NCBI GenBank assembly: GCA_045612025.1
Contig: JAZKYG010000020.1
Location: 1 to 60,399, forward strand
Origin: Bacteroidales bacterium
GTDB lineage: Bacteria; Bacteroidota; Bacteroidia; Bacteroidales; F082
DNA: 60,399 bases
Direction: 5' to 3'
The notes below the pieces were generated by a model. The model had not been told where the DNA came from and ran no database searches. It was given only the letters and a program-made list of their open reading frames with translations. The position numbers and the translations under genes are program-made. Of the stretch, positions 2,783 to 59,237 are shown piece by piece (position 1 is the first letter of the stretch; every line of letters begins with the position of its first letter).

Positions 2783-2824
2783 TGACCCTTGAACTTTAAA
2801 CTTTAAACTATAAACTTTAAAAAT

Positions 2825-3556
2825 ATGTATCAATTCAACAACGACTACAACCAACAAGTGATGTCACAAGAGATGACAAAATCATTTGTTTCTAATGTAT
2901 TTTTATGGATGTTTGCAGCGCTCGGTTTGACAGCAGCTACTGCATTTTTATTCGGCACAAGCGAAAACCTGATGAGCATGCTGATTACAGTATCACCTGA
3001 AGGTTACGCTAAGACATCAATATTAGGCTGGATCGTGACATTCGCTCCTTTAATCATAGTGTTCACTATGTCAGCTGGCATCAATAGAATGTCAGTACAA
3101 AAGACAGTGTTATTATATGTCATCTATTCCATCTTGATGGGCATGAGCCTCAGCTTCATCTTCTGGGCTTACACAACAGCATCTATCTTCAAGACATTCA
3201 TCATTGCAGCTGGCATGTTCGGCGTGATGGCAGTATTAGGATACACAACAAGCACCGATTTGACAAAATTCGGTTCATTCCTTTTCATGGCTTTGATAGG
3301 CGTCATCATCGCTACATTAGTCAACTTCTTCATGCACAGCGCAAGATTAGACTATATCATCAGCATCGCTGGCGTGCTCATCTTCACAGGATTGACAGCC
3401 TTCGACGTACAGAAGATTAAACAAATAGGAAACGCAGGTATCAACGACGGCGATGTCATGGCAAAAATCACTATTCATGCAGCCTTGACACTCTACCTCG
3501 ACTTCTTGAACCTCTTCTTATATTTATTAAGATTCTTCGGCAACTCAAGAGATTGA
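2825..3556 (+). CDS. Bax inhibitor-1/YccA family membrane protein
   Basis: Seven hydrophobic helices and a C-terminal YLDFLNLFLYLLRFFG, which is typical of the BI-1/YccA family. Confidence 0.85.
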   Translation: MYQFNNDYNQQVMSQEMTKSFVSNVFLWMFAALGLTAATAFLFGTSENLMSMLITVSPEGYAKTSILGWIVTFAPLIIVFTMSAGINRMSVQKTVLLYVIYSILMGMSLSFIFWAYTTASIFKTFIIAAGMFGVMAVLGYTTSTDLTKFGSFLFMALIGVIIATLVNFFMHSARLDYIISIAGVLIFTGLTAFDVQKIKQIGNAGINDGDVMAKITIHAALTLYLDFLNLFLYLLRFFGNSRD

Positions 3557-6232: not shown

Positions 6233-6315
6233 AATCTCAGAATCTCAGAACCTCAAAATCTCAGAAACTAGAATTTTGAGATTTTGAGGTTCTGAATTTT
6301 TGAATTCTAAAAAAA
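6233..6315. repeat. 8-nt period tandem array (AATCTCAG / AACCTCAA) followed by its inverted copy
   Basis: AATCTCAGAATCTCAGAACCTCAAAATCTCAGAAA is followed by the complementary array. The element fills the gap between the convergent protease and atpG genes. Confidence 0.9.
6245..6295. terminator. Bidirectional hairpin between convergent genes
   Basis: A perfect 19-bp stem (6245..6263 pairs with 6277..6295) with a 13-nt loop and A/T-rich flanks on both sides. Confidence 0.6.
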
Positions 6316-7197
6316 CTAAGATTCTTTCAAAGCATTCGCTCCGCTGATAATCTCAACGAGTTCGTTGGTGATAGCAGACTGACGTGCTTTGTTATACGAT
6401 ATATTAAGCTCTTTCAAGAGTTCTGTCGCATTGTCTGTCGCCTGTGTCATTGAAATCATACGAGCGCCTTGTTCTGAAGCGAAGCTATCCAACAATATCT
6501 TATAAACCTGTAGTTTAAGCGACTTCGGAATCATAACACTCAACAGTTCTTCCTTATTCGGTTGGTAAATATAATCAACCTCAGACTCGGACTGTTGTCT
6601 GTTGTCTGTTATCTGTTGACCAACAATTGGCAAAAACTGCTCCTTCACCAGCACCTGTGTCGCGGCGTTTTTAAACTGATTATATACAAATACTATCTTA
6701 TCGTATTTATTCTCATCGAAGTCTTTCATCAGACGCTCAGCAAAAGCAGCAGCGTTCTCGTATGTCAAGTCATCCAGCAAGACATTCTCGTTGCCGATGA
6801 CAGGATATTTCCTAAACTTAAGAGCATCTTCAACCTTAGAGCCGACACATAAAATGTCAACGCAATTATTATCAAATAATGTCTGATATTCGTCTTTGAT
6901 AAGGCTTATCGTCTCACGGATGACATTGGCGTTGAACGTACCACACAATCCCTTATTAGAAGATATCGAGACAATGAGAACCTTATTGGCCTTTGTCTGT
7001 TGTCTGTTGTCTGTTGTCTGTTGACCGTTTATCCTTTCAAGAATCTCGCTGAACTTCTCGGCATACGGGCGTAATGCCATGATGGCATTCTGCGACTTAC
7101 GCAGTTTGGATGCTGCCACCATCTTCATGGCACTCGTAATCTGCTTCGTCGAGTTGACAGATTCTATCCTCGTCCTGACTTCTTTTAAGTTGGCCAT
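6316..7197 (-). CDS. atpG: F-type ATP synthase gamma subunit
   Basis: MANLKEVRTRIESVNSTKQITSAMKMVAASKLRK, and NKARQSAITNELVEIISGA at the C-terminus. Confidence 0.95.
   Translation of the reverse strand: MANLKEVRTRIESVNSTKQITSAMKMVAASKLRKSQNAIMALRPYAEKFSEILERINGQQTTDNRQQTKANKVLIVSISSNKGLCGTFNANVIRETISLIKDEYQTLFDNNCVDILCVGSKVEDALKFRKYPVIGNENVLLDDLTYENAAAFAERLMKDFDENKYDKIVFVYNQFKNAATQVLVKEQFLPIVGQQITDNRQQSESEVDYIYQPNKEELLSVMIPKSLKLQVYKILLDSFASEQGARMISMTQATDNATELLKELNISYNKARQSAITNELVEIISGANALKES
6591..6620 (-). repeat. Heptamer tandem repeat (CAACAGA x4, degenerate) in frame inside atpG
   Basis: The coding strand GTCAACAGATAACAGACAACAGACAACAGT encodes GQQITDNRQQS. Confidence 0.9.
6994..7025 (-). 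repeat. Heptamer tandem repeat (CAACAGA x4.5) in frame inside atpG
   Basis: The coding strand GGTCAACAGACAACAGACAACAGACAACAGACA encodes GQQTTDNRQQT. Confidence 0.9.
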
Positions 7198-7202
7198 AAC
7201 TC

Positions 7203-8789
7203 TTAATTCTTCATTACGCTATCACATACTTCAGCAGCTACTTTTTTCAAGACCGCTACTATATCATCATCGAGCTGACCTTGTTTTATCCTGTTCATCA
7301 GGTCGGCATGACTGCTGTTGAGCGCTGAGATATAACTCTTTTCGAAATCTGCTATCTTATCTAAAGGCAGGCTTCTCATGAGGTTATTGACGCCACAGAA
7401 TATCATCGCCACTTCTTCTTCCACCTTCATCGGTGATGACTGAGGCTGGATGAGCATCTGTACGTTACGGCGGCCTTTATCCAATATCGCCTGTGTAGCA
7501 GCATCAAGGTCAGAACCGAATTTCGAGAAGGCCTCGAGTTCGCGGAACTGAGCCTGGTCTATCTTGAGAGTACCTGACACCTTCTTCATAGATTTTATCT
7601 GAGCCTTGCCGCCGACACGTGACACTGAGATACCCACGTTGATAGCAGGGCGTATACCAGCATTGAAGAGGTTAGTCTCAAGGAATATCTGACCGTCGGT
7701 GATAGAAATCACATTGGTTGGGATATATGCCGAGACGTCGCCAGCCTGTGTCTCGATGATAGGAAGAGCGGTGAGTGATCCGCCGCCTTTCACCTTGTCT
7801 TTAAGACATTCTGGAAGGTCGTTCATATTCTTAGCGATGTCGTCGTTAGCGACTATCTTCGCTGCGCGTTCAAGCAATCTTGAGTGGAGATAGAAGACGT
7901 CGCCAGGATAAGCCTCGCGTCCAGGTGGACGACGGAGAAGCAATGACACTTCGCGATATGCCACAGCCTGTTTGGAGAGGTCATCGTAGACCACCAAGGC
8001 AGGACGGCCGGTGTCGCGGAAGTATTCGCCTATGGCAGCTCCAGCGAAAGGTGCGTAATACTGCATAGCGGCAGTGTCGGATGCTGTAGCGGCGACAACG
8101 ACAGTATATGGGAGCGCGCCCTTGTCTTCCAAGGTCTGCACTATGTTAGCAATGGTTGAGCCTTTCTGTCCTACAGCGACATATATACAATAGACAGGTT
8201 CTCCCCTGTCGTAAAATTCTTTCTGATTTAAGATGGCATCGATGGCAATGGCAGTCTTGCCTGTCTGACGGTCTCCGATGATAAGCTCACGCTGACCACG
8301 TCCGATTGGAATCATGGCGTCGACAGCTTTGATACCTGTCTGAAGAGGTTCGCTCACAGGCTGACGGAAGATGACACCAGGAGCCTTACGTTCCAAAGGC
8401 ATCTCCAGAGTCTCGCCTTTGATGGCGCCCTTGCCGTCGATAGGATGACCAAGAGTGTTGACAACGCGACCTAACATACCTTCACCGACTTGTATAGAAG
8501 CGATACGATGTGTACATTTCACCACATCACCTTCCTTTATATCTGAAGCGTCATTCAAAAGAACGACACCGACATTATCTTGCTCAAGGTTCAAGACGAT
8601 GCCCATGGCACCTGTCTTCTCGAACTCGACCAACTCGCCTGACTCGGCATCGTTCATGCCATAAACACGAGCAACACCGTCGCCAATCTGAAGGACAGAG
8701 CCTTTAGTATCCAACTCGCCCTTGGTGTCGAAACCTGTCAGTTCCTGAAGCAAAATAGCTGATATCTCAGCAGGTTTTATATTTTCCAT
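7203..8789 (-). CDS. atpA: F-type ATP synthase alpha subunit
   Basis: Walker A motif GDRQTGKT, then [29 protein letters not shown]. Confidence 0.97.
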
Positions 8790-8812
8790 CGTATGTAGTT
8801 TTATTTCTTTTC

Positions 8813-9376
8813 TTAAAATCCTTTAACAAATAAATTCTCCTCAAAGACAGAATGCAGACGTTTCAAAGTACTTACCACACTAGCATCATATTCATAATCC
8901 ATATAATTGACTTTAAAACCTCCAATGATATTCTTGTCTATGACCTTCTCGACCTGAATAGCATCCTTATTGACAATCTTATGTCTCATGATATTGACGA
9001 TTCTGCCGATAGTATTCTCATCAAGATCAATGGCGGAAGTCACTGTCACGACAGCGATTTTCTTATATTCAAGATACATCTCATGATATTCATCATAGAT
9101 GTCATCGATGATCTCTTCGCGATTTTTTTCTATCAGAAGATTAACGAGATTCAATGTTATTACATCGACTCTGTCTTTGAATATCTTAGTTATGATATTA
9201 GTCTTATGAACCTTTGAGACAAAAGGCTGATGCACTAACAGATCCAGTTCCTTATTCTCTTTTAAGGTAGTCTTAACGAGAAGAAGGTCATCAAGGACCT
9301 TGTCGACGACATCATTCTGTATCGCCAACTCAAGGAAAGCCTTTGTATATCTATGTACTAAGATGTTAGGTTTCAT
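8813..9376 (-). CDS. atpH: F-type ATP synthase delta (OSCP) subunit
   Basis: Its position between atpF and atpA, its 187 aa size, and the N-terminal [10 protein letters not shown] and C-terminal GGFKV...YDASV pattern. Confidence 0.85.
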
Positions 9377-9379
9377 AGC

Positions 9380-9886
9380 TTAATGTTTTTGGTCTCTATC
9401 TTCTATTTCCTGAAGCAGACGGTTGATATAATCCAACTGTTCTTTGTCGGACTCCAGAGCCTTGCCGATTATCTTCTCTGCCACTTTGATAGAGATGTCT
9501 GCTATCTGGTTTTTGATTTCCGTTGTAGCAGCCATTCTCTCATTTTCTATTATCTCTTTGGCATTTTCTATGATACGGTCTTTCTCTTCGTCGGCCTTAA
9601 TCTTAGCTTCTTCTATAAACTTATCTGATATCTGTTTAGCTTCATTAAGTATTTTATCACGTTCTTCGCGAGCCTGTTGAAGGAGAGCCTCGTTATCAAC
9701 TTGAAGCTGTTCCATCTCTTTATGAGTACGCTCTGCCAGTTCAAGGGCATTGGTGATTTCCTCTTCGCGTTTCTTCAACATTCCGTTTATGACAGGGAAC
9801 GCGAACTTCGCCAAGATAAAAAACACTATTCCGAATGCCAACGTCATCCAGAACAACAGACCAAAATCAGGAGTGATGAGTTCCAT
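9380..9886 (-). CDS. atpF: F-type ATP synthase subunit b
   Basis: A single N-terminal transmembrane helix (LLFWMTLAFGIVFFILAKFAF) followed by a long charged coiled coil. Confidence 0.9.
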   Translation of the reverse strand: MELITPDFGLLFWMTLAFGIVFFILAKFAFPVINGMLKKREEEITNALELAERTHKEMEQLQVDNEALLQQAREERDKILNEAKQISDKFIEEAKIKADEEKDRIIENAKEIIENERMAATTEIKNQIADISIKVAEKIIGKALESDKEQLDYINRLLQEIEDRDQKH

Positions 9887-10008
9887 ATTCTAAAGTTTAA
9901 AGTGTAGTGTTTAAAGTTTAAAGTAGTTTAAAGTGTATAAGTTTAGAGTCGAGAGTGTAGATTTTTAAATCCAACAACTCTACACTCTAAACCTTCCACT
10001 ATAAACTC
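9887..10008. repeat. Repeat-laden 122-nt spacer inside the atp operon (AGTTTAA-type heptamers plus a hairpin)
   Basis: TAAAGTTTAAAGTGTAGTGTTTAAAGTTTAAAGTAGTTTAAAGTG... is followed by a hairpin in which AGAGTGTAG pairs with CTACACTCT. Confidence 0.85.
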
Positions 10009-10275
10009 TTAAAGAGCTATCAGCAAGCAGACAACTAATGCGAAGAATGAAACACCTTCAACCAAAGCTGCAGAGATGATCATGCTTGTCTGTGCGTTAC
10101 CTGCTATCTCAGGCTGACGAGCTGTGGCTTCCAAAGCAGAACTACCGATTCTGCTGATACCTAAAGCTGCACCAATTGTAACGATACTTGCTGCTAAAGC
10201 TGCACCTAACTGTGCTAATGGAGCCAAGTCAACAACTGCCTGAACTACTTCTTGTAATAAAACCAATAATGTCAT
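10009..10275 (-). CDS. atpE: F-type ATP synthase subunit c
   Basis: A two-helix proteolipid with GAALGISRIGSSALEATARQPE and the conserved acidic residue in SAALVEGVSFFALVV. Confidence 0.9.
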   Translation of the reverse strand: MTLLVLLQEVVQAVVDLAPLAQLGAALAASIVTIGAALGISRIGSSALEATARQPEIAGNAQTSMIISAALVEGVSFFALVVCLLIAL

Positions 10276-10308
10276 AACTTATAATTTTATAAAGTTTATA
10301 TTTCTTAT

Positions 10309-10340
10309 GTCAACGGACTACAGACCACAGTCAACAGTCC
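10309..10340. repeat. Intergenic copy of the TCAACRG/ACAACAG heptamer family
   Basis: GTCAACGGACTACAGACCACAGTCAACAGTCC, located between atpE and atpB. Confidence 0.8.
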
Positions 10341-10343
10341 TAA

Positions 10344-11459
10344 TTAACCATGTTTCGCTGCCATTCCAAAATATATTGAAGACAACAGAGTAAACACGTA
10401 TGCCTGTATGAATGCCACCAGCACCTCAAGGCAGTCGGCAAAGACCGCGAGCAACAATGACAGCACCGACATTCCCGCACCTGCCATAGCGCTCATCTCT
10501 CCCAAGATAAATATCATACAGATGAAACCTAGCACCACGATATGACCAGCTGTGATATTAGCAAAGAGACGTACCGCCAAGACGAACGGCTTGATAAAAC
10601 AACCGACGACTTCAATGATAGGCATCAATGGCAAAGGGAACTTCAACCACCAAGGCACGCCAGGTGTGTTGAATATATCTTCATAATAATGTTTCGAACC
10701 AGTGAAATTAGTAATGAGGAAGGTAAACAAGGCAAGCACTGCTGTCACCGCTATGTTTCCTGTGATGTTTGTTCCAAAAGGGAAGAACGGTATCAATCCC
10801 AAGAGGTTATTAAAAAATATAAAGAAAAATACAGTTAACAGATAAGGGAAATATCGTTCATAATGTTCGCCGATATTAGGTTTGGCGATGTCATCGCGCA
10901 CATAGAGTATGATTGGTTCCACGAGAGCCTGTATTCCTTTCGGGGCCTTCTCGCCTCTCTCACGATAGCCTTTAGCGACAAGAAGGAAAATCACGACAAG
11001 AAGAGTGCATGAGATAAACAATCCGCATACGGTCTTAGTTATAGAGATATCCAATGGCTTTATATGCGTTCCATCATCCATCACTCTCACCACCTTGCCT
11101 TTATGGCTTCCTTCTTCAGGGATTTCAAAGACGACATCATCGCCGTGCTTGTCTTTGGTATGATACTGATGTTCATGATGTAAATGCTTAGATGAAAAAG
11201 TATAAAACTCGCCTTCGCTATAAACTATTATCGGCAGATAGACACTGATATGCTTTCCTTTCCAAGTACATATATGCCAGTCATAAGAATCCAAAATATG
11301 GTCGAAGATAAGTTCTCCAGCATCAAATTTCTCTTCTGCCTCATATTCACTATCGTTTGCAAAAACCCTAACAGGTGTTAAGATTGTAAAACTTATTACG
11401 AACAAACAAGTTATAAGATTGAATATATATTTTCTAACAAACGATACGTTGTTTTTCAT
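10344..11459 (-). CDS. atpB: F-type ATP synthase subunit a, with an N-terminal extension
   Basis: C-terminal LAVRLFANITAGH with the essential Arg. I chose ATG 11459 (MKNNVSFVRKY...), a signal/anchor-like start, over the longer ORF-track start at 11513. Confidence 0.9.
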   Translation of the reverse strand: MKNNVSFVRKYIFNLITCLFVISFTILTPVRVFANDSEYEAEEKFDAGELIFDHILDSYDWHICTWKGKHISVYLPIIVYSEGEFYTFSSKHLHHEHQYHTKDKHGDDVVFEIPEEGSHKGKVVRVMDDGTHIKPLDISITKTVCGLFISCTLLVVIFLLVAKGYRERGEKAPKGIQALVEPIILYVRDDIAKPNIGEHYERYFPYLLTVFFFIFFNNLLGLIPFFPFGTNITGNIAVTAVLALFTFLITNFTGSKHYYEDIFNTPGVPWWLKFPLPLMPIIEVVGCFIKPFVLAVRLFANITAGHIVVLGFICMIFILGEMSAMAGAGMSVLSLLLAVFADCLEVLVAFIQAYVFTLLSSIYFGMAAKHG

Positions 11460-11561
11460 TATATCTTTTACCAAATTAATTAAATGCAATTCTACAAAAA
11501 AAAACGATATCATTAAGTTTTTTTTATTTCATTTTTCAAAAAAAGATATGCTTTTCTTTGT

Positions 11562-11573: not shown

Positions 11574-12218
11574 ATGGCAAAGAACAAATATTATGTGGTC
11601 TGGAACGGCAGACAGATAGGGATTTACAGCAATTGGGACTCTTGCAGAATGCAGATCGAGGGTTTCAAAGGCGCGCAATATAAATCATTCCCGGACAGGG
11701 CAAGTGCAGAGCAGGCCTTCAAAGACGGTTACGCCGCTTCATGTCAGCAGTCAACAGACAACGGACAGCAGACAACGGCTAAGTCTTATGAAAGTCTTCC
11801 AGAAAATCAGAGACCTATAGGTCAAAGCATCGCCGTCGATGCTGCTTGTTCCGGCAATCCAGGCAAGATGGAGTTTCAAGGTGTTTTTGTAGAGACAAGC
11901 ACTCACCTCTTCAAGAGTCCTGTCTACGAACAAGGCACCAACAATATCGGAGAGTTCCTCGCCATAGTTTATTGCCTGGCATGGCAGAAGAAAAACAAGC
12001 TCAACTATCCCATCTACTCCGACTCCGTCAATGCGCAGAAATGGGTAAGAGAAGGTGCGTGCAAGACAAAGATTACAGAAAACGAACACAACAAAGCTCT
12101 CTTTGAAGTCATACGATGGGCAGAGAAATGGCTGCATACAAACAGCTTCAGAGTTCCTATCTACAAATGGAGGACAGAGATTTGGGGAGAAATACCTGCT
12201 GACTTCGGAAGAAAATAA
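11574..12218 (+). CDS. rnhA: Ribonuclease H1-type enzyme with an N-terminal hybrid-binding (viroplasmin-like) domain
   Basis: N-terminal KYYVVWNGRQIGIYSNWDSCRMQIEGFKGAQYKSF. The RNase H core has AVDAACSGNPG, GTNNIGEFLAI and IYSDSVNA. Confidence 0.9.
   Translation: MAKNKYYVVWNGRQIGIYSNWDSCRMQIEGFKGAQYKSFPDRASAEQAFKDGYAASCQQSTDNGQQTTAKSYESLPENQRPIGQSIAVDAACSGNPGKMEFQGVFVETSTHLFKSPVYEQGTNNIGEFLAIVYCLAWQKKNKLNYPIYSDSVNAQKWVREGACKTKITENEHNKALFEVIRWAEKWLHTNSFRVPIYKWRTEIWGEIPADFGRK
11745..11780 (+). repeat. Heptamer-family repeat in frame in the rnhA inter-domain linker
   Basis: CAGCAGTCAACAGACAACGGACAGCAGACAACGGCT encodes QQSTDNGQQTTA. Confidence 0.85.
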
Positions 12219-13000: not shown

Positions 13001-13081
13001 GGTTGAGCTGTTGAGTTACTAAGTTACTGAGTTGCTAAGTTGGTGAGATAGGTCATAGAAACTTAGTAACTCAGCAACTTA
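13001..13081. repeat. 8-nt period array (GTTACTAA/GTTACTGA/GTTGCTAA) with an inverted copy
   Basis: Hairpin arms 13020..13041 and 13060..13081 match at about 20 of 22 positions. The right arm overlaps the tcdA stop codon. Confidence 0.85.
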
Positions 13082-13792
13082 GTGTCTTAATATAGAATTT
13101 ATCACATGTGATGCACAGAAGCATCCGAATATTGCTGGCATATATGATATTGTGCCGACAGTCGCAATCTTGTTTTCTGTGGCTTCTTCTATCGATACTG
13201 CACTTTCCGCGACTTTCTCAGGCGAGAATACTACAGTGATGCCTTCGCGTATTCCAAGTCGGTGCAATCGTTTTCTTATATAAAATGCCAGACGACAGTT
13301 ATGTGATTTTGAGATGTCGTCAATCTCTATCTTTGTAGGGTCGAACTTACCGCCCGCGCCCATGCAGCTGATGATGTTCTGTTTGTTTTGGACTGCATAA
13401 TATAAAAGGAACACCTTAGGCGCCAGTGTGTCGATAGCATCGACGACGAAGTCGAATTTCTGCTCCATCAAGTCGATGATTGGCTGATCTTTAAGATATT
13501 GGTTTATGGCAACGACTTCGACGTCAGGGTTGATGTCGCGTATACGTTCTGCCATCACCTCTACTTTAGGACGACCGAGTGTGCTGTCAAGAGCCAGCAG
13601 CTGTCTGTTTTTGTTAGTCACATTAACTATGTCGCAGTCGACGATGGTGAGTTTTCCTATTCCAGCACGCGCAAGCTGTTCAGCAGCATACGCGCCAACG
13701 CCACCAAGTCCCACGACGAGGACATGGCTATTCGCTAACTTCTTAACGCCTTCTTCTCCAACTAACAACTGTGTTCTTGAATTCCAATTCAT
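13079..13792 (-). CDS. tcdA: tRNA threonylcarbamoyladenosine dehydratase (ThiF/E1-like family)
   Basis: Rossmann motif VLVVGLGGVGAYAAEQLARAGIGKLTIVDCD. Confidence 0.85.
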   Translation of the reverse strand: MNWNSRTQLLVGEEGVKKLANSHVLVVGLGGVGAYAAEQLARAGIGKLTIVDCDIVNVTNKNRQLLALDSTLGRPKVEVMAERIRDINPDVEVVAINQYLKDQPIIDLMEQKFDFVVDAIDTLAPKVFLLYYAVQNKQNIISCMGAGGKFDPTKIEIDDISKSHNCRLAFYIRKRLHRLGIREGITVVFSPEKVAESAVSIEEATENKIATVGTISYMPAIFGCFCASHVINSILRH

Positions 13793-14472
13793 ATCTGTCC
13801 AAAAATTTTTACAAAGTTATTAAAAATATCGTTGCGCAGTTTATCCATTTCGATGCCGGATAAAAGGGCTGCTTTCTCATAGACGTCGGTAATCTTTCTC
13901 TCCGCGACATCGGTCTCAAGGAACAGTTTATCTGTCGGGATGAGTTTCAGCAGCTGTTTCGCTCTAGCCTCATTCTTAAACAAGATATCGCCTAAGGAAA
14001 GGCAGATATCATATTTCAGCAGCTGCCCTGCCGACTGCTCATTGCCTTGGAAACCATGGATTATCCAGGCCTGCTTCGCCTTTGTTTCCTTCCTTATAGA
14101 GATGATATCAGGATACGTTCTCACCGCATGAATTATCAGAGGTTTCGCAGTTTGTTCTGACAACTCTATCTGTTTTATGAAAACCTCCTTCTGGATTTCA
14201 AAGTCAACGCCACAAACCCTGTCAAGTCCGCATTCACCTATAGCGAGAAAATTCAAATCACCAAGACACCGAGACACCAAATCTCCAAGTTCCTCAATTC
14301 CTGAGTTCCTCAATTCCTCAGATCCGACTTTCCACGGATGTACTCCAATGCTATAAAAATGAGAAACATCGACATTGACGATATTGTCAACATCGATGTT
14401 TTGTATCTCAACAAACTCATTATTATCAATATGATTGTTAAAATGAGTATGAATATTTACGAAAGGACTCAT
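13789..14472 (-). CDS. TatD-family metal-dependent hydrolase
   Basis: NIHTH at the N-terminus, AIGECGLD, IIHAVR and ETD. It overlaps tcdA by 4 nt. Confidence 0.85.
   Translation of the reverse strand: MSPFVNIHTHFNNHIDNNEFVEIQNIDVDNIVNVDVSHFYSIGVHPWKVGSEELRNSGIEELGDLVSRCLGDLNFLAIGECGLDRVCGVDFEIQKEVFIKQIELSEQTAKPLIIHAVRTYPDIISIRKETKAKQAWIIHGFQGNEQSAGQLLKYDICLSLGDILFKNEARAKQLLKLIPTDKLFLETDVAERKITDVYEKAALLSGIEMDKLRNDIFNNFVKIFGQI
14285..14322 (-). repeat. GAGGAAYT-type short tandem repeat inside the TatD-family CDS
   Basis: The coding strand GAGGAATTGAGGAACTCAGGAATTGAGGAACTTGG encodes EELRNSGIEELG. It resembles the GGAGTTAGGAATTAGG array at 48889..48918. Confidence 0.7.
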
Positions 14473-38287: not shown

Positions 38288-39127
38288 ATGATAAAAATAA
38301 CAGATAAATCTGGATTGATACTCGAAGGTGGAGGCATGAGAGGTGTCTTCACCTCCGGAGTATTGGACTGTTTCATGGACAATGGGATACGTTTCCCTTA
38401 CACAATAGGCGTCAGCGCCGGCGCATGCAACGGTCTGTCTTACATCTCAAACCAAAGAGGCAGAGCCAAGTTCAGCAACATCGATTTGCTGGAACAATAT
38501 AATTACATCGGAATAAAACACCTCTTGAAGAAAGGCAATATCATGGATTTTGACTTGCTGTTCCACACCTTCCCTAACGAAATCATTCCATACGACTACG
38601 AACGATTGGCAAATTATGAAGGTCATTACGAGATGGTTACAACGAGTTGTAAGACCGGCAAAGCCTGTTATTTTGAAGAAAAGAAAAATCCTGAGAGAGT
38701 CATTGACATTGTGAAGGCCTCAAGCAGCCTTCCTTTCGTATGCCCTATATCATACGTCGACGGCGAACCAATGTTAGACGGCGGCATCGCCAGTTCCATT
38801 CCAATCATGCGGGCAAGAGAGTTGGGCTACGACAACAACGTCGTGGTTCTCACTCGCAACAGAGGATATCGCAAGACAGAGAAAGACATGAAGTACGTTT
38901 CTCTGTTCTACAAGAAATATCCTGCGATGCAAGAAGCTATCAGAAATCGCAACAGAATATACAATGAAGAAATAAGTCTAATTGAAAGGCTGGAAGACGC
39001 TGGAGAAATCATCGTCATCCGCCCTCAGAAACCAATAGAAGTCGACAGAATGGAACGCGACAGCAAGAAACTGATCGCACTATACGAAGAAGGATATAAT
39101 CTGGCAATGAGAACTTTAGAATTTTAG
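38288..39127 (+). CDS. Patatin-like phospholipase
   Basis: GGGMRG oxyanion motif, GVSAGA nucleophile elbow, and DGG. Confidence 0.88.
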   Translation: MIKITDKSGLILEGGGMRGVFTSGVLDCFMDNGIRFPYTIGVSAGACNGLSYISNQRGRAKFSNIDLLEQYNYIGIKHLLKKGNIMDFDLLFHTFPNEIIPYDYERLANYEGHYEMVTTSCKTGKACYFEEKKNPERVIDIVKASSSLPFVCPISYVDGEPMLDGGIASSIPIMRARELGYDNNVVVLTRNRGYRKTEKDMKYVSLFYKKYPAMQEAIRNRNRIYNEEISLIERLEDAGEIIVIRPQKPIEVDRMERDSKKLIALYEEGYNLAMRTLEF

Positions 39128-39185
39128 AACTTTAGAACTTTAAAACTTTAGAATTCTAGAGTTTTAGAGTTTTAGAGTTCTAAAA
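39110..39185. repeat. 8-nt period AGAACTTT/AGAGTTTT arrays in inverted orientation around GAATTC
   Basis: The left array begins inside the patatin CDS and encodes its last residues, RTLEF*. The two arms match at about 28 of 33 positions and could form a long hairpin spanning 39124..39185. Confidence 0.9.
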
Positions 39186-39761: not shown

Positions 39762-41396
39762 ATGGATAAGTCAGTATTTCAAGTAAGCGGACAAATCGTC
39801 GATGTGATAAATTCCCGTATTTTCAAAGGAACTGTATTTGTTGAAAACGGTAAGATTGTCGATATTATAGAAAAAGATAATGACAGCAATCAGATCATAA
39901 TGCCAGGTCTTGTCGATTCTCATATCCACATCGAAAGCTCGTTACTTGTACCAACCGAGTTTGCCCGACTCGCCTCCGTCCATGGCACTGTCGCTACTGT
40001 CAGCGACCCTCACGAGATAGCCAATGTCTTAGGAATCGAAGGCGTGAAATACATGATAGAGACAGGAAAGAAATCCCCTATGAAATTCTACTTCGGAGCT
40101 CCGAGCTGCGTGCCTGCCACATCATTCGAGACATCAGGCGCTGTCTTGGATTCCAAGGCTGTCGACGAACTTCTTTCCATAGACGACATAAAATATCTCG
40201 GCGAGATGATGAATTATCCTGGCGTCATCTTCGAGGATGAAGAAGTCATCAAAAAGATAGAGTCAGCGAAACGACATAACAAACCTATCGACGGACACGC
40301 TCCGCTTCTAAGCGGCAACGATTTGATAAAATATTGCAGCACAGGAATAACGACAGACCACGAATGCTCTAACATTCAAGAAGCTCGTGAGAAAATAGCT
40401 CTAGGAATGAGAATACAGATTCGTGAGGGCAGCGCTGCAAAAAACTTCAACGCTCTCATTCCTTTAATAAAAGAACGTCCTGATAAGATTATGTTCTGTT
40501 CTGATGATATGCATCCTCACGAATTTATCAACGGTCATATCGACAGACTCATAACAAAAGCCATATCATTAGGTTATGACACCTTAGATGTCATAAAAGC
40601 CGCTACATTGAATCCAGTAAGGCATTATAATCTCGAAGTCGGACTATTACAGAAAAACGATCCAGCCGACTTTATCATTATCGACAACTTCAAAGATTTC
40701 AATGTCTTAAAGACTTATATCGACGGAAATTTAGTGGCTGAAAATTACAAGTCGCTGATACCAGTTCACGAAGTTGAGAACACAAATAACTTCGCTGCAG
40801 AGAAAGTCCTGATTAAAGATTTCAGAATTGCTGACGAAGGAAAAGACATCAAGATCATCAATGCTATAAGCGGAGAGATTCTGACAGAAAGACTCATCGG
40901 CAGAGCAAAAAGCGTCAATAACAACCTGGTGAGCGATGTTGATAACGACATACTTAAGATAGCCGTCATAAACCGTTATGAGAAAAAGAAAATCGCTTTA
41001 GGCTTCATCAAGAATTTTGGTTTGAAGAAAGGAGCGATTGCTTCAAGTGTAGCACACGACAGCCATAACATCGTTGTTATCGGATGCAGCGATGAGGAAT
41101 TGACAAGAGCTGCTAATATGATTATCAAATCGAAAGGAGGACTGGTAACATGGAGCTACGATCAACACAAATGCATTCCGCTTCCTATCGCAGGTCTTAT
41201 GACAAATCAAAACGGATATAAGATTGCCGGCGACTACCGTATGCTCGTCGCCTTGGCACATGAGTTCGGTTCGACACTCAACGACCCATTCATGACGATG
41301 GGATTCATGTCATTGCTCGTGATACCAAAACTGAAACTCAGCGACAAAGGACTCTTCGACTGCGAGAAATTCGAACTCACAACACTATTTGAATAA
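39762..41396 (+). CDS. ade: Adenine deaminase
   Basis: PGLVDSHIHIESS, an amidohydrolase fold, and a size of 544 aa. Confidence 0.88.
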   Translation: MDKSVFQVSGQIVDVINSRIFKGTVFVENGKIVDIIEKDNDSNQIIMPGLVDSHIHIESSLLVPTEFARLASVHGTVATVSDPHEIANVLGIEGVKYMIETGKKSPMKFYFGAPSCVPATSFETSGAVLDSKAVDELLSIDDIKYLGEMMNYPGVIFEDEEVIKKIESAKRHNKPIDGHAPLLSGNDLIKYCSTGITTDHECSNIQEAREKIALGMRIQIREGSAAKNFNALIPLIKERPDKIMFCSDDMHPHEFINGHIDRLITKAISLGYDTLDVIKAATLNPVRHYNLEVGLLQKNDPADFIIIDNFKDFNVLKTYIDGNLVAENYKSLIPVHEVENTNNFAAEKVLIKDFRIADEGKDIKIINAISGEILTERLIGRAKSVNNNLVSDVDNDILKIAVINRYEKKKIALGFIKNFGLKKGAIASSVAHDSHNIVVIGCSDEELTRAANMIIKSKGGLVTWSYDQHKCIPLPIAGLMTNQNGYKIAGDYRMLVALAHEFGSTLNDPFMTMGFMSLLVIPKLKLSDKGLFDCEKFELTTLFE

Positions 41397-41466
41397 AATT
41401 CAAAACCTCAGAAATTCAAAACCTCAGAATATTTTGAGTTTTTGAATTTTTGAATTTCTAAAATAA
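41397..41466. repeat. AATTCAAAACCTCAGA arrays with an inverted copy
   Basis: AAATTCAAAACCTCAGAAATTCAAAACCTCAGAAT is followed by ATTTTGAGTTTTTGAATTTTTGAATTTCT. The element lies between convergent genes. Confidence 0.85.
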
Positions 41467-43205: not shown

Positions 43206-43239
43206 GAAAAAGGCAAAAGGCAAAAGGCAAAAGACAAAA
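43206..43239. repeat. AGGCAAA heptamer array
   Basis: AAAAAGGCAAAAGGCAAAAGGCAAAAGACAAAAG. A related tract lies at 46476..46505. Confidence 0.85.
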
Positions 43240-43312
43240 GATTTTTTTGCCAACGCCTAATTAATGAGACGCATCAATGTTTGTTTATTTTTATCGTATC
43301 ATTGATACGTCT

Positions 43313-44026
43313 CTACAAATCATTCCTTACTCCTAATTTATCAAAAGTAAATCCTCTTTCCACATAATATTCAAGGACTTTTGTAAGTGCTGGAATCATA
43401 TTGTTTACTGCTTTTTCGCTGTCGTGAAAGACGATGATACTTCCGTCGTCGGCATTTTTTATCACATTATTAAAACAATCCTCCTGACTTAAAGACTTAT
43501 CCCAATCGTAAGATATCACAGTCCAAGCCACTATTTTAAATTCTGGAATTCTAGAACTCTCGAACTTTAGAAGTTCAGATTTATCTTTAATTTCTAAACT
43601 TCTGAGGTTCTGAGATTTTGAATTTCTGAGCTTTTTAATCAATCTGATTTGTGATGATTTGATCCTTCCATGAGGCGGACGGAAAAGAGGCGATTGTATC
43701 AAAGCGTCGGCTTGTTCTACGGAATTTATGTAATCTTTGGTTTTTGTCTTCCATCCTCTTTCGTGATTGAAAGTATGATTTCCGACGGCATGACCTTCAT
43801 TCTTAATCAGTTCGAAAGTATCTTTATATTTATTAACATTATTGCCGATGCAGAAGAAAGTCGCTTTAGCGTTAAATTTCTTTAAGATTTCAAGAACCTG
43901 CGGAGTTATAGTTGGATGCGGACCGTCATCGAAAGTGAGGTAAAGTTTTTTCTCACCCTTAGGCATTTCCCAAAGAAATGAAGGATAGAACAGTCTTAAT
44001 ATTTTCGGAGTCGTGATGAGGCGCAT
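43313..44026 (-). CDS. Polysaccharide deacetylase (NodB/CE4 family) carrying an in-frame repeat insertion
   Basis: TFDDGP, HAVGNHTFNH and LFRPPHG motifs. Its ATG lies 2 nt after the stop of the upstream kinase gene. Confidence 0.88.
   Translation of the reverse strand: MRLITTPKILRLFYPSFLWEMPKGEKKLYLTFDDGPHPTITPQVLEILKKFNAKATFFCIGNNVNKYKDTFELIKNEGHAVGNHTFNHERGWKTKTKDYINSVEQADALIQSPLFRPPHGRIKSSQIRLIKKLRNSKSQNLRSLEIKDKSELLKFESSRIPEFKIVAWTVISYDWDKSLSQEDCFNNVIKNADDGSIIVFHDSEKAVNNMIPALTKVLEYYVERGFTFDKLGVRNDL
43538..43627 (-). repeat. Intergenic-type repeat (TTCTGAG/GAACTTTAG/TCTAGAAC families) embedded in frame in the NodB CDS
   Basis: The plus strand reads ...TTCTAGAACTCTCGAACTTTAGAAGTTCAG...TTCTGAGGTTCTGAGATTTTGAATTTCTGAG. 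It encodes RNSKSQNLRSLEIKDKSELLKFESSRIPEF, between the RPPHG motif and the VAW..DW motif. Confidence 0.85.
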
Positions 44027-46344: not shown

Positions 46345-46351
46345 GTTTTTG

Positions 46352-46423
46352 TACCCCCACCGGGAATCGAACCCAGATTTAAAGTTTAGGAAACTTTCGT
46401 TCTATCCGTTGAACTATAGGGGC
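46352..46423 (-). tRNA. tRNA-Arg (anticodon CCU)
   Basis: I folded the reverse complement GCCCCTATAGTTCAACGGATAGAACGAAAGTTTCCTAAACTTTAAATCTGGGTTCGATTCCCGGTGGGGGTA by hand into a cloverleaf. The anticodon stem is AAAGT/ACTTT, the loop is TTCCTAA, the T-loop is TTCGATT, and no CCA is encoded. Confidence 0.85.
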
Positions 46424-46430
46424 ATTTTTA

Positions 46431-46505
46431 ATTCATAATTCATAATGCATAATGCATAATTGAAATGAATAATTACCTTTAGACTTTGGACTTTTGCCTT
46501 TAGCC
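46431..46505. repeat. CATAATK heptamer array followed by an AGGCAAA-family tract
   Basis: ATTCATAATTCATAATGCATAATGCATAATTG, then CCTTTAGACTTTGGACTTTTGCCTTTAGCC. Confidence 0.8.
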
Positions 46506-47820: not shown

Positions 47821-47838
47821 GTCAACGGACAACAGACT
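47821..47838. repeat. Intergenic copy of the heptamer family
   Basis: GTCAACGGACAACAGACT. Confidence 0.7.
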
Positions 47839-57490: not shown

Positions 57491-57525
57491 TTAATTCACA
57501 ATGCATATTTCATAATGCATAATTA
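57491..57525. repeat. CATAATK-family repeat
   Basis: TTAATTCACAATGCATATTTCATAATGCATAATTA. It overlaps the stop codon of the downstream beta-helix gene. Confidence 0.8.
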
Positions 57526-59136
57526 GTATACAAATTTAATATTTATTATTTCTTCCTTTGACTCAATGTTCAGAAAATATACATTATTTTTTTGCAGCGA
57601 TTCAATGAAATCAGACATACGAATTTCATTCATTCCAGATTCCATTTTCCCGTAATTCTTAACGAACATTAACGAAGCATTCTGATTATATATTTTAACA
57701 TTCACATCCGATGTCTCTTTCAGTTCAAACCGGCATATTGAATTATATGTCAGAGGATTAGGATAAATGTTAATATTTTTACAGTTAATTTCTTTTAAGG
57801 AAGTAGCTGTTGACTCATAGCAGCCCATATCGATTCTATTACCGACAATTCTCTGGTTGCCAGCCAAGTCTTTTTCAGGCAGTTTAAGTCCAGTAGTATC
57901 GAGGCTTCCGCTATTTATTGCCGGGCTTCCGTATTGAAGCTGGAAGTCGCGGTTTTGAACATCCACAAACATCGGATCGCTGTCGAGCATTGTAGCGGTA
58001 TCGTAAACAGCGATACTTGAATTTCCATGCACTTCTTCATAACCGCCTTGCAGTATCGAGTTATAGAACTCAGGAGAGCAGTCGCTGCCCCAGACGAAAA
58101 TCTGCGAGCCGTCCGGAATTGACGCATGCTCAGCGTACCAGTCGTTGCCCCAGATGATGCAGTTCTTGAACACAGGACGCGCCTGACTATAAAACTGCAG
58201 CGCACCTCCACCAGCAGCCATGGTATAATTGTTTGTCATAGTGACATTCTGTATCAATGGAGATGAAGTTGCCATCGCCATCGCGCCGCCGTAATGATAT
58301 GCTATATTATTATCAAACAAACAATTCGAGATTCTAACCTCATAATCGTTGCTTCTCTGGATTCCCATTCCTGCAGCATTGACGGCGTAGTTATCTTCAA
58401 ATATCGCATTGTTGACATAGACGTAACAGCTGTCGAAATTGACACCGCCACCATAGCAATTTGTGCAATAATTATCATGGAAATACATATCCTCCATCTT
58501 CACTTCGCAGTTGTTAAACTGAAAACCCGCGCCATGCATATAGACGCCCTCTTCATTGAAACCGAAGTTTGAGTCGACTTCGCAATTCGAGATATTTACA
58601 GAAGAATGCTCAGCGTAAAGAGCACCGCCTTTTGAATTGGTGAGATTATGATAAAATGTCGTGTTTGTGATATTGACGGAAGAGTTGTAGATTCTTACTG
58701 CGCCACCGTAAGACGCCACTCTACCATTGTCCGTTGACTGTTGACTGTTGTCTTCTATCGCTTTTCCAAATGAGAAATGACAGTAATCCAATAATACAGT
58801 GTCTTTTACATTTTGAAGGATAAGTCCGTTCCAAGCGCCTTTTCCTTTTTTCCAATTGAAGAATCCCGTAGTGTCGCGGGAGGTAAAATAGATGGAATCG
58901 TCTTCGCATCCGACTGCCTTAAACGAACCATTTATCATGATGCTGAAATAATCATCGAAAATCACGTGCGTTCCTTCGGCAATTGTCAGCGACTTATCTT
59001 CCGGAACGATGACGTTATCTATAACAAATACAGTGTCGCAATCCCATAATCCTTCTTGAATACCAAATACTTCCATAGTCTGGGATTTCAGCACAAAAGG
59101 TAATAACAAAAATAACGACACTAATATTTTTTTCAT
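57523..59136 (-). CDS. Right-handed parallel beta-helix (pectin-lyase-fold-like) protein with a T9SS C-terminal sorting domain
   Basis: A signal peptide, repeated GGA(L/M/V).. turns (GGALYAEHSSVNISNC, GGGVNFDSCYV, GGAMAMATSS, GGGALQFYS) and a C-terminal IYPNPL... domain. Confidence 0.85.
   Translation of the reverse strand: MKKILVSLFLLLPFVLKSQTMEVFGIQEGLWDCDTVFVIDNVIVPEDKSLTIAEGTHVIFDDYFSIMINGSFKAVGCEDDSIYFTSRDTTGFFNWKKGKGAWNGLILQNVKDTVLLDYCHFSFGKAIEDNSQQSTDNGRVASYGGAVRIYNSSVNITNTTFYHNLTNSKGGALYAEHSSVNISNCEVDSNFGFNEEGVYMHGAGFQFNNCEVKMEDMYFHDNYCTNCYGGGVNFDSCYVYVNNAIFEDNYAVNAAGMGIQRSNDYEVRISNCLFDNNIAYHYGGAMAMATSSPLIQNVTMTNNYTMAAGGGALQFYSQARPVFKNCIIWGNDWYAEHASIPDGSQIFVWGSDCSPEFYNSILQGGYEEVHGNSSIAVYDTATMLDSDPMFVDVQNRDFQLQYGSPAINSGSLDTTGLKLPEKDLAGNQRIVGNRIDMGCYESTATSLKEINCKNINIYPNPLTYNSICRFELKETSDVNVKIYNQNASLMFVKNYGKMESGMNEIRMSDFIESLQKNNVYFLNIESKEEIINIKFVY
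58726..58755 (-). repeat. Heptamer-family repeat in frame in the beta-helix CDS
   Basis: The coding strand GACAACAGTCAACAGTCAACGGACAATGG encodes DNSQQSTDNG, the same peptide as in rnhA. Confidence 0.85.
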
Positions 59137-59237
59137 CAGAAAATTCAAATTGATTTTACAAAAATAATCATTTTTCAGCAATAAAAATTCACTTTATTAT
59201 TTATTAGGTATTTTGTTTGAAATAAAGATTTTTAACT

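Follow-up and report, generated by a model that had tools for sequence, protein, structure and literature searches.

Heptanucleotide repeat arrays in frame in two loops of the ATP synthase gamma subunit gene in an uncultured lineage of gut Bacteroidales

Repeats whose unit length is not a multiple of three are usually deemed incompatible with conserved coding sequence unless they act as switches, and yet here they are long-lived in housekeeping proteins. The case is found in a stretch of 60,399 nucleotides (nt) from a Bacteroidales bacterium (GenBank assembly GCA_045612025.1, contig JAZKYG010000020.1, positions 1 to 60,399), referred to below in its entirety as the window. Its atpG gene, which codes for the gamma subunit of the F1 ATP synthase, contains two arrays of the heptamer CAACAGA. 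How can arrays of a 7-nt unit be held in frame in such a gene, and how did they come to occupy two of its loops? The reading favored here, to which we assign a probability of about 60%, is that they are heptanucleotide simple sequence repeats (SSRs) in permissive loops, filtered by reading frame, by loop length, and by the absence of T from the unit, and that they were not transposed.

The two arrays and their loops

The gene and its arrays are as follows.

6316..7197, minus strand: atpG, F1 ATP synthase gamma subunit, 293 residues (list of open reading frames (ORFs), PF00231, PDB match)
6993..7023, minus strand: array A, CAACAGA in 4.4 perfect copies (Tandem Repeats Finder)
6591..6618, minus strand: array B, CAACAGA TAACAGA CAACAGA CAACAGT (Tandem Repeats Finder)

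The identity of the product is given by its match to PDB 2qe7_G (E = 7e-55) and by PF00231 in all homologues; atpG is the terminal gene of the atpBEFHAG cluster (6316..11513). Tandem Repeats Finder describes array A with period 7, 4.4 copies, and 100% matches, and array B (as 6592..6618) with period 7, 3.9 copies, and 90% matches. On the coding strand, 7026..6993 reads GGT (CAACAGA)x4 CAA and encodes GQQTTDNRQQT, while 6621..6591 reads GGT followed by the four units of array B and encodes GQQITDNRQQS, both in frame. The arrays occupy codons 58-68 and 193-202, remote from any start codon, and together form a 30-nt direct repeat of 97% identity spaced 405 nt (135 codons) from start to start. With at most one mismatch, the 14-mer CAACAGACAACAGA has 8 matches in the window against 0.02 expected, a number reached by none of 100 shuffles. 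Both arrays thus consist, as heptanucleotide SSRs do, of head-to-tail units within the 5-11-nt range in excess of chance. The presence of CAACAGA arrays in frame at two sites of atpG, the starting point of a preliminary description made from the letters alone, was borne out by Tandem Repeats Finder, the repeat search, and the shuffles; the arrays exist and are not due to chance. Since assembly can go wrong at short tandem repeats, an assembly or sequencing artefact was considered. It is excluded for practical purposes, as more than 100 independent assemblies (ENA, NCBI, JGI, Logan) share the arrays at the same sites with coherent variation.

Arrays A and B also share their codon phase, and recombination between them would excise the entire gamma globular domain as an in-frame deletion. 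None of 234 related protein clusters has such a deletion. The repeat search returned no inverted repeats in or around either array, and both are devoid of a GTAG or CGTC end tag. The anatomy of a palindromic or mobile element was rejected for the arrays on these two grounds.

Array A and the degenerate units beside it (AAACGGT at 7030..7024; CAAAGGC and CAATAAG at 6995..6982) make up the entire loop from the N-terminal helix to strand 1, with the peptide NGQQTTDNRQQTKANK. The loop of array B leads from the last strand of the globular domain to the Y-I-Y-Q-P start of the C-terminal helix. When the protein was aligned with 17 orthologues of 49-68% identity, the two sites were the only gapped or unconserved blocks, and distant orthologues had non-repetitive loops of about equal length at both. 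At site A, the window protein is 2-4 residues shorter than most of the 17. In comparison with 2qe7_G, the Caldalkalibacillus gamma chain that is the best solved structure, it is 3 residues shorter at site A, which aligns to the helix-to-strand-1 loop, and 5 residues longer at site B. An AlphaFold model from a shallow alignment is of low confidence (mean predicted local distance difference test score, pLDDT, 55), so only its secondary-structure layout was used: helix 2-57, coil 58-72, alpha/beta domain, coil 189-214, and helix 215-291. The lowest pLDDT falls in the two coils that carry the arrays, and both the model and the structure alignment place these coils on the flanks of the globular domain.

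Such repeats are absent from orthologues of 62% identity or less and leave at most a decayed trace at 69%. The preliminary description had placed them in length-variable regions of gamma and had called them lineage-specific, and both statements hold. Its proposal that they are kept as a surface loop agrees with the translated arrays in predicted surface coils. It had further taken both segments for insertions, an idea that it considered lost if related genes had non-repetitive sequence of the same length at both sites. This is what the alignment and the structure mapping revealed, and a model of net insertion was rejected on the basis of the 17 orthologues and the PDB gamma chains: the loop lengths equal those of the orthologues within a few residues, unlike the net in-frame insertion that characterizes palindromic elements in genes.

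Reading frame, peptide, and history of the loops

As 7 and 3 share no common factor, every base of a heptameric unit is read once at each codon position, and the three phases yield one and the same cyclic heptapeptide. For CAACAGA this is QQTTDNR, and for its complement SVVCCLL. If the coding strand of the unit has no T, neither a stop codon nor any of F, L, I, M, V, W, Y, and C can be encoded. By enumeration, there are 2340 strand-specific heptamer classes, of which 1608 are stop-free and exactly 312, the T-free ones, avoid both the stops and these residues. It is because the unit is T-free that CAACAG(A/C) arrays are tolerated in surface coils and are always found in the CAACAG sense. The array peptide probably forms a flexible and neutral loop.

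The frame is reflected in the variation among strains (protein clusters are labelled P and fetched DNA loci L). In 119 protein clusters of 80-94% identity (ENA, NCBI, JGI, Logan), nearly all have Q-rich heptad peptides at both sites, with 43 distinct loop strings at site A and 45 at site B; the columns of site A have an entropy of 0.88 bits and those of site B 0.61, in comparison with 0.16 for the rest of gamma. Loop lengths change in steps of 7 residues, i.e., three units (14, 21, and 28 at site A), and alleles longer or shorter by 7 residues occur at both sites (P0105, P0096, P0092, and P0106 versus P0116). Strains therefore differ by whole units, as expected for an SSR, in frame-preserving steps only, and the earlier statement that only particular unit numbers would be tolerated is consistent with these alleles.

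A 7-nt unit within an ORF has the classical anatomy of a frameshift switch, and the arrays might be a contingency locus, turning atpG on and off by slippage (phase variation), or a cis-acting binding site in RNA or DNA. Arrays of about four units persist throughout the clade. In addition, AT-rich arrays elsewhere in the window finish 3-6 nt before start codons and resemble TAACTGA arrays proposed as translational regulator sites (PMC4679880):

2792..2821, plus strand: AT-rich heptamer array, AACTTTA in 4.3 copies, ending 3 nt before the ATG at 2825 (ORF 2825..3556)
9891..9924, minus strand: AACTTTA in about 4.9 copies before the ATG of atpF (9886), in the same orientation as at 2792..2821

However, atpG codes for a subunit of a housekeeping enzyme and not for a surface antigen involved in host interaction; all 234 clusters are full length, with loop lengths that differ in frame only and neither out-of-frame nor truncated alleles, although a protein database under-reports truncated products. 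Moreover, the unit is not conserved between strains, and the arrays are distant from start codons. A switch or binding site is thus highly improbable.

A role of the peptide itself has somewhat better prospects and is still unlikely. Here, loops rich in Q, T, N, and D would be selected for contact with the c-ring or epsilon or for the regulation of coupling, the DNA periodicity being a by-product. The coiled coil has one of the two loops at each end, in the region of contact between gamma and the rotor (c-ring and epsilon), although for the window protein such a contact is suggested by known gamma structures rather than by a computation. The Q-Q start of site B is common to relatives down to about 70% identity. 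On the other hand, no columns of gamma vary more than those of the loops, CAACAGN units also occur in unrelated proteins and in intergenic DNA, and the peptides vary freely among close strains (QQTTDNR, QQPTANS, QQSMVNG, RHRDTETP, RDVTPVAS, TQTQTQ, and SESKSV runs). It is the DNA repeat that persists, and the amino acid sequence does not.

The units also carry the history of the sites. In the DNA of six relatives, the seventh base is homogenized within each array: the atpG unit is CAACAGA in the window, L082, and L085, CAACAGC in L086, and CAACAGT or CAACGGT in L083 and L084. The syntenic locus L330, whose gamma is 77% identical, has at site A ACAACAGT CAACGGA CAACAGT CAACGGT, followed by CTTTGCCGAAGTAAGGGAAGACGGGAAG. 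The latter encodes VFAEVREDGK, the consensus second half of loop A in distant orthologues. The array of L330 is thus short and leaves the ancestral half in place, whereas in the window clade the array spans the entire loop. At 55% identity or less, the loops are non-repetitive. No array is present in the 69% relative L001, but of all positions in its gene it is precisely site B that fits (CAACAGA)n best (18/28, top 0.2%). Among the more distant orthologues, a decayed array was signalled in L001 alone and at site B alone, site A of L001 being marginal. In L331, site A has (ACACAG)n, encoding TQTQTQ, and site B six copies of the octamer GACAACAA. In a sub-lineage represented by L085 (10635-10700, site B; P0103 and P0113-P0115), the heptamers are followed by a hexamer run of about 10 CAGAGT/CAAAGT units, which encodes SESKSV repeats and extends gamma to 307-318 residues. 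A search of JGI metagenome contigs with patterns from the flanks of site A gave 0 matches and then 7 chance matches unrelated to atpG. Genome-wide concerted evolution of unit variants by ectopic conversion was rejected, as the variants are specific to locus or lineage and not to genome.

The partial array of L330 and the locus-specific unit variants favor growth in place. The simplest reading of the aligned loci is that arrays were seeded in both loops before the clade radiated, grew in place while replacing ancestral residues, and have turned over since; the suggestion that one element landed twice finds no support, as relatives at 77% have a shorter array next to an ancestral half-loop. The proposed mechanism would begin with the seeding of an array in a permissive loop at the junction of the gamma coiled coil and the globular domain. 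We infer that the array would then grow and be homogenized through replication slippage or unequal exchange. Selection for frame would leave only three-unit (21-nt) steps or compensated changes, selection for loop length would offset growth by the loss of ancestral loop sequence, and selection at the protein level would retain units with a harmless peptide.

Related arrays and alternative cassettes

The atpG arrays are not isolated. With an array finder set to periods of 5-9, at least 3.3 copies, and at least 80% identity, the window has 12 arrays, every one of period 7 or 8; 100 order-3 Markov shuffles of the window had a mean of 0.32 and a maximum of 2. The syntenic loci of close relatives (L082, L084, L085, L086, and L330) have 9-13 arrays per 21 kb, in comparison with 2.8 per 60 kb in 80 atp loci of other Bacteroidota, where they are mostly heptamers immediately upstream of atpG. 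Heptamer arrays in this upstream position were also noted in many Flavobacteriia (L044, L045, L055, L060, L063, and L065). Arrays A and B belong to a dense, clade-wide population of arrays of about 30 nt with 7-8-nt units, and the array-dense lineage is an uncultured Bacteroidales/Lentimicrobiaceae-like clade of herbivore guts. Recurring intergenic unit families are AACTTTA, TAATTCA/TAATGCA, and ATAGTTT, whereas CAACAGN is the family located inside genes. It is found in frame in at least five proteins besides gamma, always with CAACAG on the coding strand. The further copies in the window, together with a loop occupied by octamers, are listed here.

11745..11779, plus strand: third in-frame array, CAGCAGT CAACAGA CAACGGA CAGCAGA CAACGGC, in ORF 11574..12218
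58723..58750, minus strand: fourth in-frame array, CAACAGT CAACAGT CAACGGA CAATGGT, in ORF 57523..59181
47823..47836, plus strand: short intergenic copy, CAACGGA CAACAGA, 6 nt past a stop codon
14259..14320, minus strand: loop of a TatD-family protein with octamer arrays GAGGAATT/GAGGAACT and TTGGTGTC, in gene 13789..14472

The third array encodes CQQSTDNGQQTT (including QQSTDNGQQTT), a linker between a Cauli_VI-type N-terminal domain and an RNase H domain, as assigned by the Pfam labels of orthologues; orthologous arrays are present in L081 and L082. The fourth encodes NSQQSTDNGR in a secreted beta-helix-like protein with a C-terminal sorting-type tail. In relatives, TatD and the C-terminal region of DnaX also contain CAACAGN units in frame. 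The DnaX unit is CAACAGC in both L082 and L086, whereas the atpG units of these two differ. The DnaX (tau/gamma) C-terminal region of L082 (19933-20135) and L086 (19882-20066) has consecutive CAACAGC/CAGCAGC arrays and an AACCTC hexamer array, all in frame, and the length of DnaX ranges from 576 to 618 residues across close relatives. That of TatD ranges from 223 to 240 residues in L081-L086 and is 279 in L330.

A scan for (CAACAGA)x3.9 with one genome per species returned at least 120 loci in many phyla, mainly in metagenome-assembled genomes (MAGs) of herbivore-gut Bacteroidales. The 120 matches listed comprise 50 in long sense ORFs, 14 antisense, and 56 with no long frame. Among these listed matches, arrays in ORFs mostly have 3-4 units and use all three phases, and intergenic arrays have up to 20 units.

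Other repeats can occupy the same loops. The alternative at site A is a dispersed hairpin element of 24-26 nt, GTAGAGACGTCACYCCTGTGGCGTCT, in which AGAGACGTCACYCCTGTGGCGTCT always follows GT to give a GTAG head, with an 8-bp stem and a 4-nt loop behind it. It was found at at least 119 loci, among the matches listed only in a dozen or so MAGs of herbivore-gut Bacteroidales, and 171 copies were counted in the fetched DNA. Long sense ORFs contain 43 of the 171 copies (RDVTPVAS about 25 times, VETSPLWRL in a second frame 13 times), 35 of the 171 lie within 30 nt of a short-period array, and some directly abut CAACAGN arrays in ORFs (L089, L223). The window has no match with up to three mismatches. 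The hairpin fits the superfamily of GTAG/CGTC-tagged repetitive extragenic palindromes (REPs) and looks like a REP family in Bacteroidales. Hairpin sites include L081 10172-10199 (site A of atpG), L089 2912-2935, L169 3487-3510, L180 4394-4417, L085 12869-12888, and L207-L322; tandem repeats of the hairpin have fixed periods of 43, 50, 57, or 65 nt (L219, L239, L263, and L250).

These cassettes weigh against the view of the arrays as SSRs grown in place. At site B, P0026 and others (L082) have four copies of GAGACACC (RHRDTETPRH) of the same length in place of the heptamers; at site A, P0013 and others (L081) have GGTAGAGACGTCACTCCTGTGGCGTCTGA, which encodes GRDVTPVAS; and the TatD loop, after the GIHPW motif, likewise alternates between octamer arrays (window, L082, L083, and L086) and CAACAGA heptamers (L084, L085). 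Slippage alone does not explain such a swap of a heptamer for an unrelated octamer or hairpin at one site. Nor does it explain why CAACAGN recurs at many unrelated coding sites when any of 312 T-free units would do, why arrays settle at about 4-5 units, or why the clade has an excess of arrays over other Bacteroidota.

These observations could be accommodated if a process in the clade wrote arrays of preferred units (about 30 nt) and the 24-nt GTAG hairpin into permissive sites from genomic templates, overwriting what was there roughly length for length. Possible routes are template switching, ectopic gene conversion, or a single-strand enzyme of the HUH/RAYT type. The occurrence of the CAACAGN family at many unrelated loci of many genomes would be in line with this, as would the sharing of sites by cassettes of similar length (heptamer, octamer, and hairpin in atpG; heptamer and octamer in TatD), the presence of each of the four possible pairings of a site A with a site B allele (P0002, P0026, P0025, and P0057), and the number of hairpins, their confinement to MAGs of herbivore-gut Bacteroidales among the matches listed, and their proximity to arrays. 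However, the arrays have no termini, tags, or target duplications. Their unit variants are locus-specific, as illustrated by DnaX and atpG in L082 and L086, with no sign of genome-wide conversion. The 77% relative with its partial array beside ancestral sequence is what growth in place would be expected to leave, the four allele combinations are equally explained by homologous recombination between strains, and the proximity of hairpins to arrays is confounded by a common preference for intergenic DNA. Overwriting from templates is therefore a tentative alternative, to be placed well behind SSR growth in place and ahead of a selected peptide or a switch.

The window has further repeats. Octamers resembling TCAGAATC make up terminator-like inverted repeats. 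Such octamer-built repeats stand 3' of genes at 6237..6303, 13014..13085, 39110..39182, 41396..41457, and 43539..43639, with octamers of the types TCAGAATC, AGTTACTA, and AGAACTTT and with each arm being an array of 3-5 units; the one directly 3' of the atpG stop has the arms 6237-6266 and 6274-6303, which are 87% complementary. The sole hairpin of the window with a GTAGAGACG head, distantly related to the dispersed element, is intergenic (43254..43316, minus strand; arms GAGACGTATCAATG and CATTGATGCGTCTC, loop of about 21 nt) and adjoins an array of 4.9 AAAAGGC units (43208..43241). A tRNA-like candidate with the motif GGGAATCGAACCC (46345..46425, minus strand) has a hairpin terminator before it and, after it, an array of TAATTCA/TAATGCA heptamers (46429..46460).

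Comparison with known systems

Heptamer arrays are a possible route to hypervariable surface loops in conserved proteins, and their loci can serve as natural markers by which strains of uncultured gut Bacteroidales are told apart. The clade is also well suited to studies of what causes some bacteria to accumulate heptamer arrays of about four units and of a possible mechanistic link between such arrays and REP-like hairpins. If overwriting from templates did take place, it would amount to a bacterial system of tiny mobile repeats inside genes that renders protein loops hypervariable. No description was found of a heptamer family devoid of T that is maintained in frame throughout a clade in conserved housekeeping proteins, of the stepwise, length-neutral overwriting of ancestral loops by heptamer arrays, or of the alternation of heptamers with octamer arrays and an intragenic REP-like hairpin at the same site.

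In many bacteria, long SSRs (units of 5-11 nt) are most often heptanucleotides (Mrazek et al. 2007, as summarized in PMC4679880). Some bacteria have heptanucleotide SSRs in excess and favor about four units (PMC4679880, PMC4692102), and GGGNATC heptamer arrays are known from Xanthomonas and Nostoc (PMC4692102). The arrays of the clade share with these the head-to-tail heptamers, the lineage-specific excess, the number of about four units, and the many families per genome. Those arrays are mainly intergenic and under-represented in ORFs, whereas the present ones are T-free, in frame in housekeeping proteins, and clade-wide. Given that CAACAGA arrays have no G-quadruplex potential, such structures leave the preference for about four units unexplained.

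TAACTGA heptamer arrays of Beggiatoaceae, cyanobacteria, and five Bacteroidetes are situated a few nt upstream of start codons (MacGregor 2015, PMC4679880). Their unit is identical to CAACAGA at 5/7 positions, TAACAGA is present in array B, and the AACTTTA arrays of the window have a comparable position before start codons. The atpG arrays differ in being intragenic and remote from start codons, and in having a unit that varies by strain. Since TAACTGA in its forward orientation encodes stops, it cannot run through an ORF.

The contingency loci of Haemophilus and Neisseria resemble the atpG arrays in having a non-triplet unit inside an ORF. They differ in that atpG is a housekeeping gene with no out-of-frame alleles seen, only four units, and an unconserved sequence. 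Lineage-specific loops of gamma, such as the regulatory insertion of chloroplasts and cyanobacteria and the mycobacterial gamma loop, are true insertions, conserved, and of known or proposed function. The same general variable regions of gamma accept lineage-specific sequence in both cases, while the array loops are length-neutral and hypervariable. The unit of the cyanobacterial repeat STRR3 is said to be CAACAGT (work of Mazel from 1990), and CAACAGT units do occur in relatives of the window. For Nostoc, Elhai reportedly described in 2008 small dispersed repeats within heptamer arrays and proposed roughly length-for-length replacement. The 24-nt hairpin of the sister strains resembles these repeats, which are said to be nearly identical, to measure 21-27 nt, to lie in heptamers, and to be inserted or deleted when orthologous sites are compared; the window atpG itself has no hairpin.

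The preliminary description had drawn a parallel with Rickettsia palindromic elements (RPEs), which are in-frame elements, and GTAG/CGTC-tagged REPs are likewise known inside ORFs (Di Nocera et al. 2013, PMC3733652). The likeness lies in repeated DNA being tolerated in frame in loops of conserved functional proteins. RPEs and REPs are palindromic, tagged, and discrete and add length, whereas the CAACAGA arrays are non-palindromic tandem repeats without termini and cause no net insertion. The parallel thus falls away for the arrays and holds for the GTAG-headed 24-nt hairpin allele of loop A: in atpG, the true counterpart of these elements is the GTAGAGACGTCACYCCTGTGGCGTCT hairpin, which sister strains have in place of array A.

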